Part shown: in pieces, positions 27,365 through 36,291 of the stretch
How the letters are laid out: each line of letters starts with the position of its first letter
Numbering within the stretch: the stretch's first letter is position 1
From: a virus
UHGV virus genome: UHGV-0200858
DNA length: 36,291 nt
Strand: one strand, 5' to 3'
Position numbers and translations under genes: made by a program
The notes under the pieces: model-generated
What the model was told of the DNA's origin: nothing
The model's database searches: none
The model's input: only the letters and a program-made list of their open reading frames with translations

Positions 27365-29269
27365 TTAGAACGATGTTACCCAGCTACGGCCTCTATTTGG
27401 GCGTCTGGCGATGTTTTTACGTTGTGGTCGTGTGATTGGCTTATTTTCTTCGATTTGCTCGTCAGATTGCGATTTAGGAGCTTTTACGGGTTCTTCGACA
27501 ACACGGTTTAAGCTGTCTTTCATTGCGATGAGTTTATCCCATGACATTTTTGAAAGGACGTAGCGAGAAGCCGCTGTAGCATACACGGCGCAGTCGAGCG
27601 CCTCGTTCCTAACGCCTGGGTTCTTTACCCATCTCACGCCAGTAGTAGTACGCTTGACAGATTCACTTAAAAGCTGATCGAGATAATCATCAGGAACGGT
27701 GTCTGATATTTCTAAGCCAATATGAGGATTATCTTTCAGGTTCCTAGCCAACATTTCACGAAATGCAGTTTTACCCACATTAACACCCAACATAAGCAAT
27801 TCATGACCACCTGTGCGGGTAGGTTTAACCGGAATGATCGGAGCGTTACCAGCAGAACTACCTTTGATAGCGTGTAAGTTCTTCCACTTGCCGCAAATAC
27901 GGTATCCAGCTTGAGTGAATCGACCGTTCGATGTATCAAGGAAGCTGGCGAGCATAGGAACACGATCACCCGATACAGTAGTAAATCTGGTTTTATGGAA
28001 GTTGATTAATCTATCCCATACAGGGGATTCATATCGTTCACAGTTATGATCGTAAAAGCTGCGGTGATCCAGAATATAAATCTTATCCTTTGCCACGCCC
28101 ATGATTGTAGTTTCTGCGCGATCTAATTGCTGGTCAGTACCCGCACACAAGAAAATCACGTCATCAGGGATATTCTCGATAGAAACATCTGTTTTGAGTT
28201 GTTCCAGTTCATTTGCTTCTACTGCCGTGTCCTGATCGTCGTATACCTTGCCTAACACGGTGTTATAAAATGATTGTAAATCAAAGGATTGCCACGCATG
28301 ACTAAAATCAACCACACAAGCGCGGATCGTGCTGAAAGGTGAATACAGACGGCTGATCCAGAATCCTGCTACTTCACTTTCACGGGTTGCTCTCCACTCG
28401 CCTTGTGCTACTGCCCTGATCCGCTCTCCTTCTGTCCATGCGTTCTTACAGTGGGGGCAAATATAACGAGCGGTATCAGGATCGGGTAAGTTCTTACCAT
28501 CGATGTTACGCCATTCAAATTGAACGTTTTCCCACTCGATCACCTGGTGTCTACCGCAATGAGGACACGGAACAAAAAACATACGCATATCGCTTGATAA
28601 CCATTGCTGGTTAATGCTTCCCAGCTTACTGGTCGGGGTACTGGATACGACTAATCGACCTTCATCGCCAAAGGTAGTTAAACGGTTAGCAGCCAGTGCC
28701 ACCGGATCACCTTCTTCTGAGGCTGTAGCAGCATCGATTTCGTCAAGCAATCCAACCTTTGCGGTCTTACCACGTAGGGTTGATGGACTGGTAAGCGATA
28801 CCATGTACAGGAAGTGATTCGTTTTTAGCTGTAGCTGGTTATTGTTGTTAACCGCATTGCGATCATTCTTGTCTGTAACCACGTCTTTTAATGCATCACA
28901 TGCTTCGATAGACGGTCGGATCTTACCAGCGAGATATTGAGACATTTCTTTAGCGGTTGATTGTCCGATAATCATATTGCATGGATCGTTAGCCATCTGG
29001 TTAAACAGGATGCCGTTCAGGATGGTAGTCTTTCCGATCTGCGCACTGGTCATCAGAACATACTTTTTCTTGTTCTCAAGGAAAGGAGCATCAATCATGC
29101 CTTTCTGGAATGACAGCAATTTAACTTTATCCCCAGCTTGAGGACCATCTACCAGCACCATATTCGCTTCGCACCATTCCGATGGAAGGAGTTTAGGCGG
29201 TGGCGTAATATATTTTGCGGCATTTCTAAGAATTCTTTTTAGTTTTGTTTTGTTCGAAATTAGTTTCAT
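27365..29269 (-). CDS. terL: terminase large subunit (634 aa)
   Basis: Size, position upstream of portal, N-terminal ATPase-like region (Walker A-like MTSAQIGKT, Walker B-like VGLLDEID) and C-terminal nuclease-like region with conserved acidic residues. Confidence 0.8.
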
Positions 29270-29356
29270 TCAAATACCCTCATTACGAAATATGAAGGTA
29301 TTTATTAAATTGTTGATATTTTGATAAATATGGGTATTAAGATTTAAGGGGGGTGT

Positions 29357-29959
29357 ATGCTAATTAACCAACAACAAAGGGATGAATTAGATTTAGCCTT
29401 ATCTTGTACCGATCATGAATATCGTTTGCCAGTCAAGCATAAGCATTTAAAAACCGACTACACAACATCCGGTTTTAGCCGTGAGGAAGCGAAAGAGATT
29501 TTAATAGAGTTTTACCGCGATAATGGTTATACAGACGTTCACAACTTCTTTAAGAAGCATAGAACATCACATACAGAGTTTCGGAGAGTCCGAGATTGGT
29601 TTGATTTTGATATCAAGCGGTTTTACAGGATTGATGACGGTCCGGTCTATCGGTTGCAATGGAAGCCGATCCGAGAAGTGTTGAAACAGAAGAGATTGAA
29701 TCACGCTGTTACACGCTATCGTAACGAGGCATTCAAGAAAGGCTATGGTGATACAAGGGAATTGTTTGTAGAACTCGCTAACGTGCGTTATAGCCACTAT
29801 TACAACGATCCTAAAGGATTCTTCGAAGTGCTTCGCAAGGTTGATATTAGTCGGGGTACATACTATTCACGGTTGAAGAAGTACGGGATTAAGGCAGAGT
29901 TCTTCATGACCGTTGACGACTCACCGATGTTCAAGATAAAATGTAAGTCCTCTAAATAA
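29357..29959 (+). CDS. hypothetical protein with C-terminal small HTH-like module (200 aa)
   Basis: Divergent from terminase; C-terminus GFFEVLRKVDISRGTYYSRLKKYGIKAEFF resembles the two small paralogs at 29962..30219 and 33429..33623. Confidence 0.45.
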   Translation: MLINQQQRDELDLALSCTDHEYRLPVKHKHLKTDYTTSGFSREEAKEILIEFYRDNGYTDVHNFFKKHRTSHTEFRRVRDWFDFDIKRFYRIDDGPVYRLQWKPIREVLKQKRLNHAVTRYRNEAFKKGYGDTRELFVELANVRYSHYYNDPKGFFEVLRKVDISRGTYYSRLKKYGIKAEFFMTVDDSPMFKIKCKSSK

Positions 29960-29961
29960 TA

Positions 29962-30219
29962 TTGAGAATTCACTATTGTTTGGAGGAAACTACTATGACT
30001 ACTAAAGCTACTCGCGGACGTCCTTGCCGTTTTGATCGTGAACAACTGGCAGCGATTGTAAAAGCGTACTATCAAGCACCGAAAGGTAAAGCCGAAAAAG
30101 AACAAGTATTGAGCGAACACGGTATTTCAATCGCTCAATTCTACAAATCACTCCATAAAGTTGATTTGAAATTCTTTGTTCAGGTTGACGGTGAAATGGT
30201 AGAAGCAACAGGAATTTGA
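29962..30219 (+). CDS. small HTH-like DNA-binding protein (paralog family)
   Basis: RGRPCRFDREQLAAIVKAYY ... GISIAQFYKSLHKV pattern; likely true start at internal ATG about 29995 preceded by GGAGGA; followed by terminator. Confidence 0.45.
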   Translation: MRIHYCLEETTMTTKATRGRPCRFDREQLAAIVKAYYQAPKGKAEKEQVLSEHGISIAQFYKSLHKVDLKFFVQVDGEMVEATGI

Positions 30220-31574: not shown

Positions 31575-31649
31575 GTTACATCCTCTTTACAAATCTAGGT
31601 CAAATAGGTTCAAAGTTGTCAAGTGCGATAATCATAAAAAAGTCAGAAA

Positions 31650-31685
31650 TATTTGTCAATACCCCTTGACAAGTTGCCAAAGGGT
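31650..31685. promoter_or_regulatory. inverted-repeat operator candidate TTGTCAA-N7-TTGACAA with additional TTGACC copy (approx)
   Basis: ATATTTGTCAATACCCCTTGACAAGTTGCCAAAGGGTTGACC in the gap between two minus-strand early genes. Confidence 0.35.
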
Positions 31686-31693
31686 TGACCTCA

Positions 31694-32203
31694 TTAGAGC
31701 ATTTCTAAGCCATCGTGATAGCCGTAGAAGCCATTCTGAGAAGAGAAACAGATAGGAGCATAATCATCATCTTCGTCGTCTTCATCTTCGTCATAATCGT
31801 TTTTAGGGGCTTCCTGAGCGTCTTCTTTACCGTAGTTAAACATGGCTTCGTCAATCTCTTGAAGGGTTACGAAACTACCCAGATCTTGATCACCGGAACG
31901 GACTTCGAACGGCAGGTCATCACGAACAATAATTGCTGGTAGATTCTGGTATTTCGCACGATCTTGATCGGTGAAGCAGTTAACTACGATAGTAGGTTTC
32001 TTGTTCTTGCAAAACGAATACCAAGCACTAGAAAAGCTGGATTCATCGGAATCAAAAAGGATGTTATAACCACGTTCAACGAAGATCTTCATTAAACGGT
32101 CATTGTGAAAGCTATCTGCATCCAGACCTAACAGGATGAAAGGAGTAGTAGTCTTGTTCTTGTACATAGTTGGTAATCCTCTAAAAGAAAGTGAATCAAA
32201 CAA
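31694..32203 (-). CDS. early protein with acidic C-terminal tail (169 aa)
   Basis: First gene of the leftward unit leaving the control region; C-terminal DYDEDEDDEDDDY acidic run; N-terminal alpha/beta-like region without recognisable catalytic motif. Confidence 0.45.
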   Translation of the reverse strand: MFDSLSFRGLPTMYKNKTTTPFILLGLDADSFHNDRLMKIFVERGYNILFDSDESSFSSAWYSFCKNKKPTIVVNCFTDQDRAKYQNLPAIIVRDDLPFEVRSGDQDLGSFVTLQEIDEAMFNYGKEDAQEAPKNDYDEDEDDEDDDYAPICFSSQNGFYGYHDGLEML

Positions 32204-32753
32204 ATTACACTAGTATTTATAACGAGAATTTTTTATCTATTTGGAAGTGATTGGTATTCAGTCTGGCTAAAGCCATCCTTCATGTACTAGAACAAGAATT
32301 ATACAAAACAAATTTTCTTCTATAATAATATTATATAATAGTTCTTCGTTTTGATTAAATGATCATCAAACCAGTATTGACGCTCTCCAGAGCGTCTGCG
32401 AAGCAATCTATTACCTTCTAGTATTATCAAAGTGATTCTAACTACCTTTCTAGTAACCAGTTAGTAACCACCTAGTATTAAATCCCTTTCTAAGAAAATC
32501 CTTTCAAAAGTGAGTGAACGCCGTAGGCGTGAACGTGAGCGAAGCGAACTATCCAATCCCTTTCGAATCCTGCTTGCAGGTCTTAGAAGGTGTTGGTGGG
32601 CGCTACGCGCACGGCTACGCCGTATTCTTTTTGTGAGATCTTTCTTGAACGCTAGTGAGAGAAAGCGAACAAAAAGGAGAACGTTAGTTCGAGTTTTATA
32701 TTCTATGGTCTGTGTGGTCAAATGCTTTTGCAAATCATACACTTACGTGATTA

Positions 32754-32878
32754 AAGTGTAGGGTTAGTGTAGGTGTGTAGGTTTCATAGTGTAGGTTTGG
32801 ACATGTTCTAGTGTAGGTTTACTGGCTAGTGTAGTGTAGGCCAATCCCTTTCATGTGTAGGTTTGTAGTGTAGGTTTT
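32754..32878 (+). repeat. direct-repeat (iteron-like) array, about 8 copies of GTGTAGG(T)TT
   Basis: Read directly: AGTGTAGGGTT, AGTGTAGGTG, TGTGTAGGTTT, AGTGTAGGTTT, AGTGTAGGTTT, AGTGTAGTGTAGG, TGTGTAGGTTT, AGTGTAGGTTT, all same orientation, spacing 10-20 bp, in non-coding AT-rich region. Confidence 0.8.
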
Positions 32879-32896
32879 TCATCAAAAATTTTGATA
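32878..32896. promoter_or_regulatory. near-palindromic site ATCAAAAATTTTGAT (operator candidate, copy 1)
   Basis: CATCAAAAATTTTGATAAAAA immediately after the iteron array; dyad symmetric. Confidence 0.4.
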
Positions 32897-32959
32897 AAAA
32901 ATTCTTGTATATTATTTAACCAAAAAATCATCAAAAAATAGCTGTAAGTTAATGATTTA

Positions 32960-32993
32960 AAAGGAATTGTCAAAAGGTCACCGTGCTATAATA
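32960..32993 (+). promoter_or_regulatory. extended -10 promoter candidate (TGcTATAAT) (approx)
   Basis: GGAATTGTCAAAAGGTCACCGTGCTATAATAGG: TGnTATAAT extended -10 with upstream TTGTCA-like element. Confidence 0.45.
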
Positions 32994-33029
32994 GGTTATA
33001 AAGGTTGATAATCCTGATCAGCCGTTTTC

Positions 33030-33046
33030 ACACAAAAATTTTGATA
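33030..33046. promoter_or_regulatory. near-palindromic site CAAAAATTTTGATAG (operator candidate, copy 2)
   Basis: Second copy of the AAAAATTTTGATA dyad about 150 bp from copy 1 and about 27 bp upstream of a consensus -35. Confidence 0.4.
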
Positions 33047-33072
33047 GTCATTTCTCGCCTAGATCATGGGTA

Positions 33073-33101
33073 TTGACAATAGTCAAGAACTATTTTATAC
33101 T
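33073..33101 (+). promoter_or_regulatory. near-consensus sigma70 promoter (TTGACA-17-TATACT) driving the rightward early unit
   Basis: TTGACAATAGTCAAGAACTATTTTATACT; the -35 lies within the inverted repeat TTGAC-N4-GTCAA. Confidence 0.6.
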
Positions 33102-33428
33102 TTTTCTCACTGGTGGGGGTTGAAATTTTCAAAACAATCCCCATATAGATGATAGGCAAGAATTTCTCTTGTATAAATACATGCATGAAAATGATTGTTC
33201 ACTTCTGAAATCTCCAGATTCACTGTTAATTCATACAGCACTGGTTAGATATACAGTGCTTTTTCGGTTGAATAATGTACGAATTGATTAATTATTAATC
33301 TTCTCTTTAGCAATTCGTGCTCCCACTGATCGGATATACAGTAGTTTTACAGGGTTTTTCGAAAATCATTTTATAAATAGATATGTCGAGAGCGAAAAGC
33401 TCTTTTTAAAGTTTTCATTATTCCACAA

Positions 33429-33623
33429 TTGAGGATTCTACTTATGGCTAGACCTGTTAAATTTACCCGTGAAATGATTGTTGATATTGCTAAACGCTTT
33501 TATGGTGACACTGAACGAGGCGGTGAGAACTTCTTTAAGAAGGAAGGAATTGATAGAAGCGGATTCTACAAACTAATGAAGAAATACGAGATTCAAGTAA
33601 AGATTAACGTTCAAGTTTGTTAA
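33429..33623 (+). CDS. small HTH-like DNA-binding protein (64 aa), paralog of 29962..30219
   Basis: ARPVKFTREMIVDIAKRFY ... GIDRSGFYKLMKKYEIQV pattern shared with the other two small modules; AGGA SD. Confidence 0.45.
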   Translation: MRILLMARPVKFTREMIVDIAKRFYGDTERGGENFFKKEGIDRSGFYKLMKKYEIQVKINVQVC

Positions 33624-33741: not shown

Positions 33742-34773
33742 ATGAAAAATTCTAAGCGCATCACCTTCAACCTGTTCATCAAAGCAAACGGCAAACTGAA
33801 CATTACTGTCATGGAAGGTAAAGCAAGCAAACAAGACAAATCCTTTGAAGTAGTATCCGGTAAGACTCTGACCGAAATGCGTCAGAATGCTGGCATCAAA
33901 GACGGTGCTGAATGGCAGATCACTAACCGTTTCGACAAACGTCACGTTAAACCTACACTGGTAGAAGGTGAATCCGTTTATTGCTTCGCTCGTGCTGTTA
34001 AAGCTGATGAGACTTACTATCTCGCTGTTGTTAAAACTGCTTCCGGCTTCCGTGCTGTAATGCACCACAAGAGCAAGCGTAACGAATACGGTGTAGAGAC
34101 CCAGGAAGTTGCAAAACGCTTCCGTACTGTTGCTACTGAATCCACTGTAAAAGATGTTTCTGGTACTGTTAACACCGCTAAAGGTGGTTCTTTCTACAAC
34201 CACGCATTACAGGTTACTTCCTCCTTCTTCTGCAAAAAAGAAGCTGTGAAAGAAGTTGCTCCGGTAGTAGTTGAAGAAGTTAAAGAAGAAGTTGCAGTGG
34301 TTGAATCTTCCGAAGTTGAAGCACTGAAAGCACGAATCGCTGAACTGGAAGCTGAAATGACAGCAGTTAAAGCAGAAAACGCATCTCTGAAAGCAGAACT
34401 GGCAGCACAGGAAACTACTTTCGAAGTAGCAGCGGTTGAAGTTGAAGCAGTTGAAGAAAAATCCATTGATGAAGAACTGGAAGAACTCCTTAACTATCGC
34501 TGGGGTAACGGTGAAGTAGAAGAAGAACAGGAAAACGAGAAAGAAGCTGATCCGGTAGTAGTTCCGGTTGAAGTTGAAGCAGAATCCGCACCAGTTACTA
34601 ACTTTGAATCCCTGCGCAATAACTTTATGGCTAAATTCAAAACCACTTGGGAAGATACCGAAGAAGAACAAGAAGAGATTGAAGTAAACGAAGACGAGAT
34701 CCGCGAAGCACAGATGGCACTGCATGACGCTATCTATGACACCAACTACAGCGCCTACGCATACGCAGCTTAA
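33742..34773 (+). CDS. highly acidic early protein with N-terminal globular domain and C-terminal E/V/A-rich coiled coil (343 aa)
   Basis: Strong SD (AGGAG), codon usage strongly biased to major E. coli-type codons (CTG, AAA, GAA, GTT, CGT), C-terminal half dominated by E/A/V repeats (EVEAVEEK, VVPVEVEAE); candidate host-takeover/anti-defence protein. Confidence 0.55.
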   Translation: MKNSKRITFNLFIKANGKLNITVMEGKASKQDKSFEVVSGKTLTEMRQNAGIKDGAEWQITNRFDKRHVKPTLVEGESVYCFARAVKADETYYLAVVKTASGFRAVMHHKSKRNEYGVETQEVAKRFRTVATESTVKDVSGTVNTAKGGSFYNHALQVTSSFFCKKEAVKEVAPVVVEEVKEEVAVVESSEVEALKARIAELEAEMTAVKAENASLKAELAAQETTFEVAAVEVEAVEEKSIDEELEELLNYRWGNGEVEEEQENEKEADPVVVPVEVEAESAPVTNFESLRNNFMAKFKTTWEDTEEEQEEIEVNEDEIREAQMALHDAIYDTNYSAYAYAA

Positions 34774-35730: not shown

Positions 35731-36291
35731 TTAGGACACATCGAATTCATCATCTTCTTCGGATTCTTCTTGTTCTTCCGGTTCATCCATTAACGGTAAT
35801 TCTTCTTCGTCCTCGTCTTCACCTAATTCTGCATTTTCGAACATATCCCCTACTTCATTTAAACGACGCTCGATGATCTCCCTTAGCTTATTCTTCAACG
35901 TTTTCTGATCGGTTGCAGATTCGAGAATTTCTAAAGCATCGATTGTGGCGATCTGCAAAATAGTCTGCTTCACTTTCCCGCAGTATTCCGCTAGTTCCTG
36001 TTCTACATACCCTACTGGAATAAGTTGGTTCATCGCTTCCTGGTTCTCGCGTTCGGCAGCATCTGCTAAAGCACGTTCACGGCGTAATTTCTCGACATCG
36101 ATTTGTTCCTTAATAGAAGTTTCTTTGAGCGGGTTAATGATATTTTTCAAGACCCATTCTGTACCCTCTTTTGCTGGTACGCGTCGTGTATTGGTATTAA
36201 ATGGCATTCCTCGTTGCTGCCATTTCTTAGCTGCGTTGATTGTATAGCCGTATAAGCGGGAAATTTCTGTAAGGGTTAATTCTTCTTTCAT
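35731..36291 (-). CDS. Nu1-like winged-HTH DNA-binding protein, putative terminase small subunit (186 aa)
   Basis: N-terminal LTLTEISRLYGYTINAAKKWQQRGMP resembles the lambda Nu1 HTH (QNWQEQGMP), followed by EKLRRE coiled coil and acidic C-terminus; the window ends exactly at the start codon. Confidence 0.5.
   Translation of the reverse strand: MKEELTLTEISRLYGYTINAAKKWQQRGMPFNTNTRRVPAKEGTEWVLKNIINPLKETSIKEQIDVEKLRRERALADAAERENQEAMNQLIPVGYVEQELAEYCGKVKQTILQIATIDALEILESATDQKTLKNKLREIIERRLNEVGDMFENAELGEDEDEEELPLMDEPEEQEESEEDDEFDVS

Follow-up and report, generated by a model that had tools for sequence, protein, structure and literature searches.

The gal repressosome of E. coli, with GalR at OE and OI and HU at the loop apex, and the looping pairs of lac, deo, and nag are among the described systems closest to an arrangement that we describe here for UHGV virus genome UHGV-0200858, a stretch of 36,291 nucleotides (called the window throughout) that represents a prophage of ca. 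36.3 kb integrated in ycdX. In its control region, two AT-rich dyads lie on either side of an extended -10 promoter, P2, and upstream of a second promoter, PR (Table 1). As in gal, like sites are found at around -110 and +40 of a promoter that needs no -35 element, with a possible bending site near the midpoint, though the dyads are 148 to 150 bp apart instead of 113 bp, the second of them is half-symmetric, and helical phasing is not evident here. We favor the view that a single sequence-specific protein binds both AT dyads as a pair and in this way, perhaps through a DNA loop, modulates P2, and would give this reading a probability of roughly 40%; that the dyads are cis-regulatory in one way or another seems probable.

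The window contains just two copies of AAAAATTTTGATA, one at 32884-32896 and the other at 33034-33046, and no further copy at 0 to 1 mismatch, barring self-overlap on the opposite strand. The exact word common to both copies is the 14-mer CAAAAATTTTGATA at 32883 and 33033, 150 bp apart. While dyad 1 stretches beyond its perfect core to 13-1-13 with one mismatch (32875-32901), dyad 2 in fact reproduces its right half. A previous sequence-only reading had described twin near-perfect AT palindromes about 150 bp apart, of which the two copies and their distance stand and the palindromic nature of the second does not: dyad symmetry in the range of ca. 14 to 20 bp typical of operators is found at dyad 1 (7-1-7), with dyad 2 reaching only 5-1-5. 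Markov-1 shuffling of the 1.24-kb spacer yields an exact direct repeat of at least 13 nucleotides within 200 bp in ca. 1% of cases, and shuffling of the whole window does so in ca. 10%, and a chance origin of the repeat is unlikely, though not overwhelmingly so.

The same reading had placed the dyads around an extended -10 promoter and upstream of a TTGACA-17-TATACT promoter with its -35 in an inverted repeat, and both are borne out, by TGCTATAAT at 32984-32992 between the copies and by TTGAC-AATA-GTCAA at 33073-33086, whose left arm is the -35 of PR. Two similar sites around one promoter, as in a looping pair, are indeed what the 14-mer on either side of P2 provides. Measured from the predicted P2 start (~32999), dyad 1 (centre at 32888) is located at about -111 and dyad 2 (centre at 33038) at about +39; from the predicted PR start (~33108), the values are about -220 for dyad 1 and -70 for dyad 2, and 32 bp separate the TTGATA of dyad 2 from PR. 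The dyads overlap no core promoter element, neither -35 nor -10 nor start, of P2 or PR, and there is no AT dyad copy at the leftward promoter PL. Nor do they look like UP elements: dyad 1 matches the UP consensus, yet no promoter follows 3 bp downstream, and dyad 2 sits at about -77 to -62 of PR as compared to -59 to -38 for an UP element.

PR and PL each match the sigma70 consensus at 11 of 12 positions with 17-bp spacers and have hexamers conserved from E. coli over Salmonella to Proteus, while P2 fits the extended -10 class, all judged from sequence. In relatives, P2 keeps its TG in 15 of 16 cases and a conserved ATAAT, with the first T replaced by C in 6 of 16. With hexamers conserved in all relatives and variation in the PL spacer and the -35 region of P2, all three of PR, PL, and P2 have the look of real sigma70 promoters; no variation is seen in the PL hexamers, and this promoter as a whole is conserved from E. 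coli to Proteus. Just 3' of P2 (33005-33021), relatives such as L003 and L007 read GATAATCATTAT or GATAATCGTTATC, which resemble the Fur-box core GATAATCATTATC, at a place where the window reads GATAATCCTGATC; iron regulation of P2 is possible on this ground.

The relatives used for these comparisons comprise 14 viral-contig loci found via the 169-aa (amino acid) protein encoded leftward of the control spacer and five more found via an invariant 17-mer of the PR leader, together with Salmonella and Proteus loci collected via homologues of the 59-aa protein encoded first in the PR operon and nine metagenome loci; gene order is common to all of them. A 99.8% identical copy of the prophage, also inserted in ycdX, is present in E. 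coli FDAARGOS_1267, and the region is matched in 44 of 5,426 complete E. coli genomes (ca. 0.8%), 31 of which have the dyad cassette. Among 16 distinct cassette-bearing E. coli sequences (type A), whose 306-bp core is 81% to 99% identical pairwise, both dyads are found in every one, and they recur in eight further cassette-bearing metagenome loci. Across the 16 relatives, the dyad arms are invariant, and variation is seen at the centre of dyad 1 (position 32887, in 6 of the 16), as would be expected of a dyad contacted by a dimer. Furthermore, the non-coding cassette and leader are 88% to 90% identical to the window and flanking coding DNA only ca. 76% to 85%, and this excess of non-coding over coding identity indicates that the cassette as a whole is under constraint by purifying selection.

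The AT dyads are confined to a single E. coli cassette of ca. 180 bp (~32878-33056) and mark both ends of the segment that sets it apart from its alternatives. In six E. coli relatives, homology to the window opens at dyad 1 (BLAST blocks from 32877/32878) with another repeat array to the left, which makes dyad 1 the left edge of the cassette and a mosaic breakpoint. Two other E. coli loci (L002 and L004) have everything from dyad 1 to ~33370 replaced, so that the iterons abut another consensus promoter followed by a different leader. Salmonella relatives keep the PR core (GCCTAG..TTGAC-N4-GTCAAC..TATAAT), the terminator-like hairpins T1 to T3, and most of the leader, but are devoid of the two dyads, of P2, and of hairpin H1; in Proteus, the upstream region is different again and has no AT dyads. 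Conservation of the dyads, on which the sequence-only reading had made its proposal depend, therefore extends to the 16 E. coli cassettes and ends at Salmonella, Proteus, and other E. coli relatives. Since these relatives lack the dyads and nonetheless keep the surrounding layout (gene order, iteron arrays, and downstream operon), the comparison points to the AT dyads as an exchangeable accessory input and not as conserved core operators.

What the slot contains in Salmonella is informative in itself. Four loci (L073, L074, L075, and L076) have a canonical sigma54 promoter there (TGGCACGGCTTTTGCT or TGGCACGGTGTTTGCA; TGGCACG-N4-TTGC), located at about 3640-3660 in L075 and preceded in L073 and L074 (3545-3680) by a perfect consensus for integration host factor (IHF), TATCAATAACTTA, and three NtrC-like dyads of the form TGCAC-N7/8-GTGCA (e.g., TGCACTATCATGGTGCA). 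This is the architecture of NtrC- and IHF-dependent sigma54 promoters of the glnHp2 type and suggests nitrogen-regulated prophage transcription in Salmonella; more generally, it points to a slot used for regulated promoters that read host proteins. Unlike these relatives, the window has no sigma54 promoter, P2 is of the sigma70 extended -10 kind, and homology between the cassettes is not demonstrable. Manual and MAFFT alignments disagree on whether P2 is homologous to the Salmonella sigma54 promoter, and we make no such claim.

Under the paired-site reading, one protein would occupy both dyads, a bend near the midpoint at the IHF-like site would aid looping of the ca. 150 bp between them, and the loop would shut off or tune P2; from its place at about -70, dyad 2 might act on PR as well. 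The cassette would then read dyad 1, invariant A/T block, IHF- or UP-like site, P2, and dyad 2, inserted between the iteron array and PR. Its IHF-like site lies roughly midway between the dyads with invariant flanks and the most variable columns at its N positions (32948-32951), which is how IHF sites vary; there is no exact IHF consensus at 32945-32957, and the site overlaps the invariant TGATTTAAAAG, which could equally be an UP-like tract for P2. PR would be governed separately, through its own -35 dyad and the three leader hairpins ahead of the genes for the helix-turn-helix and iteron-binding proteins.

Several observations weigh against paired operator-like sites. Dyad 2 is symmetric only in part, and conservation does not single out the dyads because ca. 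24% of 16-nucleotide windows in the cassette have at least 13 invariant columns and are at least as conserved as dyad 1. Their spacing of 148, 149, or 150 bp in the 16 relatives, among which divergence is small, is no integral number of helical turns and varies by 1 to 2 bp, and it speaks neither for nor against helical phasing. Once 2 mismatches are permitted, the window shows no enrichment of the motif, and our literature searches on it and on ycdX prophages returned no paper with the motif in a relevant context and nothing else of relevance. We know of no regulator whose consensus it fits: FNR, CRP, Fur, ArgR, Lrp, LexA, NagC, and the 434 operator, compared by consensus sequence, gave partial matches or the wrong geometry. 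Finally, no phage-encoded binder candidate is left in the sampled region, in which the dyads co-occur with four variants of the 59-aa protein and three iteron/protein types. A host factor is plausible as the dyad binder because the Salmonella cassette uses host proteins, and the binder may be either such a factor or a conserved phage protein encoded elsewhere.

Table 1. Coordinates of features in and around the control region of UHGV-0200858.
Feature	Position	Strand	Description
PL	31659..31631	-	TTGACA-17-TATGAT; 11/12; element span 31631..31672
156-aa protein	31694-32164	-	'cI position'; predicted flavodoxin/P-loop-like alpha/beta domain and disordered acidic tail
Iteron array	32756..32877	+	Eight GTGTAGG(TTT), 8-23 bp apart, mostly 11-14 or 21-23; ends 3 bp from dyad 1
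Dyad 1	32881..32895		Perfect 7-1-7 palindrome ATCAAAA-A-TTTTGAT
IHF-like site	32945..32957	-	AATCATTAACTTA; AATCAT-N4-TTA; 12/13 to WATCAANNNNTTR; roughly midway between dyads
P2	32984..32992	+	Extended -10 TGCTATAAT (TGnTATAAT); no recognisable -35; inferred start ~32999
Dyad 2	33033..33046	+	CAAAAATTTTGATA; symmetric solely over CAAAA-A-TTTTG (5-1-5); between P2 and PR
PR	33073..33101	+	TTGACA-17-TATACT; 11/12; inferred start ~33108
H1	33107..33152	+	Hairpin GGGGTTG...CAATCCCC; 5' end of PR transcript; absent in Salmonella; elsewhere in L002/L004 leader
Putative antisense promoter	33149..33177	-	TTTATA-17-TATCAT facing PR; 9/12; weak
T1	33238..33264	+	GCACTG-N10-CAGTGC, then T5; stem invariant, loop variable, one compensatory pair
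17-mer	33305-33321	+	CTTTAGCAATTCGTGCT; with T2 spans 33305..33348
T2	within 33305..33348	+	CCACTG-N10-CAGTAG, then TTTT; terminator-like, directly after the 17-mer
T3	33389..33407	+	AGAGC-GAAAA-GCTCT, then T5; terminator-like, just before the first open reading frame
59-aa protein	33444..33623	+	First gene of PR operon; predicted three-helix bundle, pLDDT 79, helix-turn-helix-like
343-aa protein	33742..34773	+	N-terminal domain, coiled coil, acidic tail; two genes downstream

The strongest alternative, which we consider possible if somewhat less probable than paired sites, is that the dyads are architectural A/T elements near the iterons (weak IHF, H-NS, or Fis sites, A-tract bends, or a melting segment) that serve origin-like unwinding or the silencing of AT-rich acquired DNA. 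On the minus strand, both copies read TATCAAAATTTTTG, with TATCAAAATTTTT as the best IHF reading at 12 of 13 positions, dyad 1 abuts the last iteron and opens the almost invariant A/T block at 32897-32938, and the GC content of the cassette region is 36% as compared to ca. 42% elsewhere. The succession of iterons, A/T block, IHF-like site, promoter, and cognate gene is also the layout of iteron replicons as known from F, P1, and pSC101, including extra iterons past the gene; inverted iteron copies lie at 33952, 34990, and 35008. On the other hand, WATCAANNNNTTR is not matched exactly at either dyad though it is at other places in the window (e.g., 29306-29318), conserved DnaA boxes are absent (GTTTTCACA beside dyad 2 varies in relatives), and the exact 14-nucleotide repeat is more specific than a composition-driven architecture requires. 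Relatives that have the same iterons and protein without dyads further argue that the dyads are not needed for any iteron role.

The likeness to iteron plasmids (F oriS/repE, P1 oriR/repA/incA, and pSC101 ori/repA) lies in direct repeats spaced near 11 and 22 bp, an A/T block, an IHF-like site, a promoter, and an operon product that co-varies with the repeats. In place of the window-type GTGTAGGTTT iterons, arrays in relatives consist of CAGGGGCAA, GGGGATA, or CTAGGGAT, and iteron type matches the type of the N-terminal domain (N-domain) of the ~330-aa protein, the 343-aa protein of the window, in 21 of 21 loci (four types), independently of the intervening cassette. The iteron arrays are very probably bound by this protein, and phased repeats that co-vary with a linked protein imply that iterons and N-domain are a matched site and binder that set the specificity of replication, partition, or immunity. 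Yet the locus departs from such plasmids in that the dyads are unrelated to the iterons, whereas the repE and repA operators resemble theirs, and in that neither a conserved DnaA box nor an initiator of a known Rep family is present: the ~330-aa protein had no match in Pfam, PHROGs, NCBIfam, PDB, or plasmid proteins, and the element, being a prophage, is integrated and encodes a serine integrase. As identical dyads are found alongside three of the four iteron/protein types, we rejected this protein as the dyad binder.

It is rather improbable, in our judgment, that the dyads are functionless, i.e., that they are a local AT-rich duplication kept by recent divergence with cassette ends that are recombination junctions marking module exchange. 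Such an origin would fit the breakpoint that lies exactly at dyad 1 in six relatives, the dispensability of the cassette in other lineages, carriers that are only 81% to 99% identical with dyads no better conserved than their surroundings, and the window-wide chance of a close repeat. The much lower chance within the spacer, the excess of non-coding over coding identity with its indication of purifying selection on the whole cassette, and the avoidance of the dyad arms by substitutions speak against it.

Very unlikely, finally, are classical immunity operators at which a small helix-turn-helix phage repressor on the AT dyads would silence divergent early promoters in the lysogen: PL and PR do point outward around a leftward gene, the first PR gene encodes a predicted small three-helix protein with weak helix-turn-helix-like matches, and the phage encodes two paralogues of it, but the dyads are distant from -35 and -10 elements and missing at PL, the 59-aa variants occur with and without dyads with four of them (53% to 60% identical) sharing identical ones, the fold matches of this protein are non-significant (E above 1), and the gene in the position of cI has no predicted DNA-binding fold. 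The comparison with lambdoid phages (OL/PL, cI, and OR/PR) and phage 186 (FL and FR) runs along similar lines. Shared are strong outward promoters with a leftward gene between them, dyads that overlap -35 boxes, and distal sites that flank a promoter. In contrast to these phages, there is no CI-like repressor here and the intervening gene encodes a predicted alpha/beta domain with an acidic tail, the AT dyads lie away from the promoters and many relatives do without them, the PL dyad (7-N6-7, divergent) differs from the PR dyad (5-N4-5, convergent), and a stretch of 1.4 kb that contains the leftward gene and iteron arrays separates PL from PR.

The sequence-only reading had proposed repressor/operator control of divergent early transcription, and what survives of it are the outward PL and PR around the leftward gene and their conserved -35 dyads. 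The AT dyads themselves must be given up as core operators, given their location off the promoter elements, their absence from PL and from many relatives, and the lack of co-variation with a helix-turn-helix protein or any other cognate repressor among the relatives. The dyad at the PR -35 is more likely than the AT dyads to be a true operator. In E. coli, neither its TTGAC and GTCAAG arms nor the PR hexamers vary, in contrast to the 4 nucleotides between the arms, and Salmonella keeps the dyad with a free 4-nucleotide centre and a TATAAT -10, while the homologous Proteus promoter is devoid of it. PR looks constitutive, with control exerted downstream and via the -35 dyad. At PL, the leftward dyad of the earlier reading is present as TTGTCAA/TTGACAA at 31653-31672, overlapping the promoter, with a spacer of N6 and not N7 as had been stated; an additional TTGACAA is found at 31616-31622, and the 12-mer GGGTATTGACAA is common to PL and PR. 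Directly upstream of the PL -35, a GC-rich hairpin occupies 31660-31692 on the minus strand (ACCCTTTG...CAAGGGGT), with different stems in Salmonella (ACCCCTTG/CAAGGGGT and ACCCCCT/AGGGGGT in L073 and L075). The PL dyad may partly be a by-product of this hairpin, whose stem contains its left arm.

With regard to the other proteins encoded around the spacer, the 59-aa protein is most probably not the specific dyad binder because its variants and the dyads do not co-vary, the same variants being found also in dyad-less loci. Its third helix is fairly conserved, and its paralogues are encoded at 29995-30219 and by the C-terminal half of 29357-29959 (a 200-aa protein). All three share the motif RPxKFTRE...FF...GI[DS]RS.[FY]YK.LKKY, of which the 200-aa protein may contain a second copy, and the family is annotated as hypothetical and found only in prophages of E. 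coli, Salmonella, and Proteus. The 156-aa protein has no family match and many homologues in E. coli and Shigella, with an acidic tail that ends in a conserved DDDYAPICFSS.NGFYGY..GL.ML; with a predicted alpha/beta fold and no helix-turn-helix, its gene was discarded as a CI analogue. Searches of the spacer-flanking proteins against Pfam, PHROGs, NCBIfam, and PADLOC were uninformative except for a Rha domain and a terS-like match, and matches to LmuB and bZIP proteins were dismissed as coiled-coil noise.

The PR leader spans 335 nucleotides (33107-33443) and comprises H1, three terminator-like hairpins, and the invariant 17-mer, followed by the 59-aa gene. Its hairpin stems are invariant and its loops vary, although the covariation term is ~0 for sequences that are too similar, and the H3 pairing is broken in Salmonella. 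The 17-mer CTTTAGCAATTCGTGCT is found in all leader types of E. coli and Salmonella and twice in the L002/L004 type; an assignment as boxA was rejected since a match with 2 mismatches is expected 4.8 times by chance. As DNA, T1 and T2 read CTG-N10-CAG, which is LexA-box spacing with a perfect right half ATATACAG. Facing PR, the element at 33149-33177 may be an antisense or convergent promoter, with conserved hexamers around a 17-nucleotide spacer that is the most variable stretch of the block. An Rfam scan gave only sub-threshold matches (STnc250 with E=0.066 and GcvB), and a tRNA scan found zero tRNA genes.

The control spacer at 32165-33443 (1.28 kb, without coding annotation) separates the leftward 156/169-aa gene from the rightward 59-aa gene within a region of short genes in alternating orientation (29.3-36.3 kb). 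Its left part (32440-32700) is ca. 80% conserved in Salmonella. The motif (A/T)CCCTTTC is repeated there, and in Proteus its copies make up TTTCTAGAAA palindromes. Short GC hairpins cluster in the same part, and a further hairpin, at 32611-32623, resembles a terminator and has a T-run behind it. Elsewhere, the prophage encodes a large serine integrase (1274-2968), a UvsW-like helicase, a lambda-like head module with terL (27365-29269), portal, and major capsid protein, as well as a tape measure protein, tail fibers, and an endolysin, all from the minus strand. A Nu1-like small terminase homologue (phrog_57, 35731-36291) is found at the attR end, 6.4 kb from terL with mixed-orientation regulatory genes between, and may alternatively serve in excision or as a DNA-binding factor of another kind.

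Between the divergent genes for terL and the 200-aa protein, a region of 87 bp (29270-29356) is almost invariant in E. coli relatives and has an exact IHF consensus at 29306-29318 (minus strand) beside ATTTTGATA without any strong sigma70 promoter; its sequence is probably that of an activator-dependent late promoter. The half-site ATTTTGATA is enriched (5 copies as compared to 1.1 expected), including the one between terL and the 200-aa gene, but a late-gene regulator shared through it was rejected because this copy is not conserved in Salmonella.

Relatives outside this group of prophages were sought without success. DNA and protein searches with the spacer, the 59-aa protein, and the N-domain of the 343-aa protein gave zero matches among sequenced phages and plasmids, a scan of species-representative genomes with the 169-aa protein found zero relatives, and a metagenome scan with the PR core retrieved only near-identical E. 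coli-type loci and nothing more diverged. Elements of the same family in Salmonella and Proteus adjoin a PHP-domain gene resembling ycdX. We are thus dealing with a prophage family without relatives among sequenced phages, in which a repressor is not recognisable and regulatory proteins are not annotated.

As a kind of feature, the AT dyads are ordinary, and the modular control region of this uncharacterised prophage family is of more interest. Input cassette, iteron/protein pair, and small helix-turn-helix gene assort independently among relatives and amount to natural swap experiments. A far-reaching and rather doubtful extension of our reading would see the 1.2-kb spacer as the control hub of an undescribed family of ycdX prophages in E. 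coli, Salmonella, and Proteus, where swappable input cassettes would wire signals into a conserved constitutive PR, and where a leader rich in terminators would control expression of the helix-turn-helix protein and of an iteron-binding protein of at least four specificity types. The inputs would be AT dyads with an extended -10 promoter in some E. coli, NtrC, IHF, and sigma54 elements in Salmonella, and iterons abutting a consensus promoter in other E. coli, and the AT dyads would be where a regulator of the host docks and links the replication or induction of the prophage with host physiology. The exchange of cassettes also suggests that prophage control can be placed under regulators of the host in this way, for instance under nitrogen control in Salmonella.

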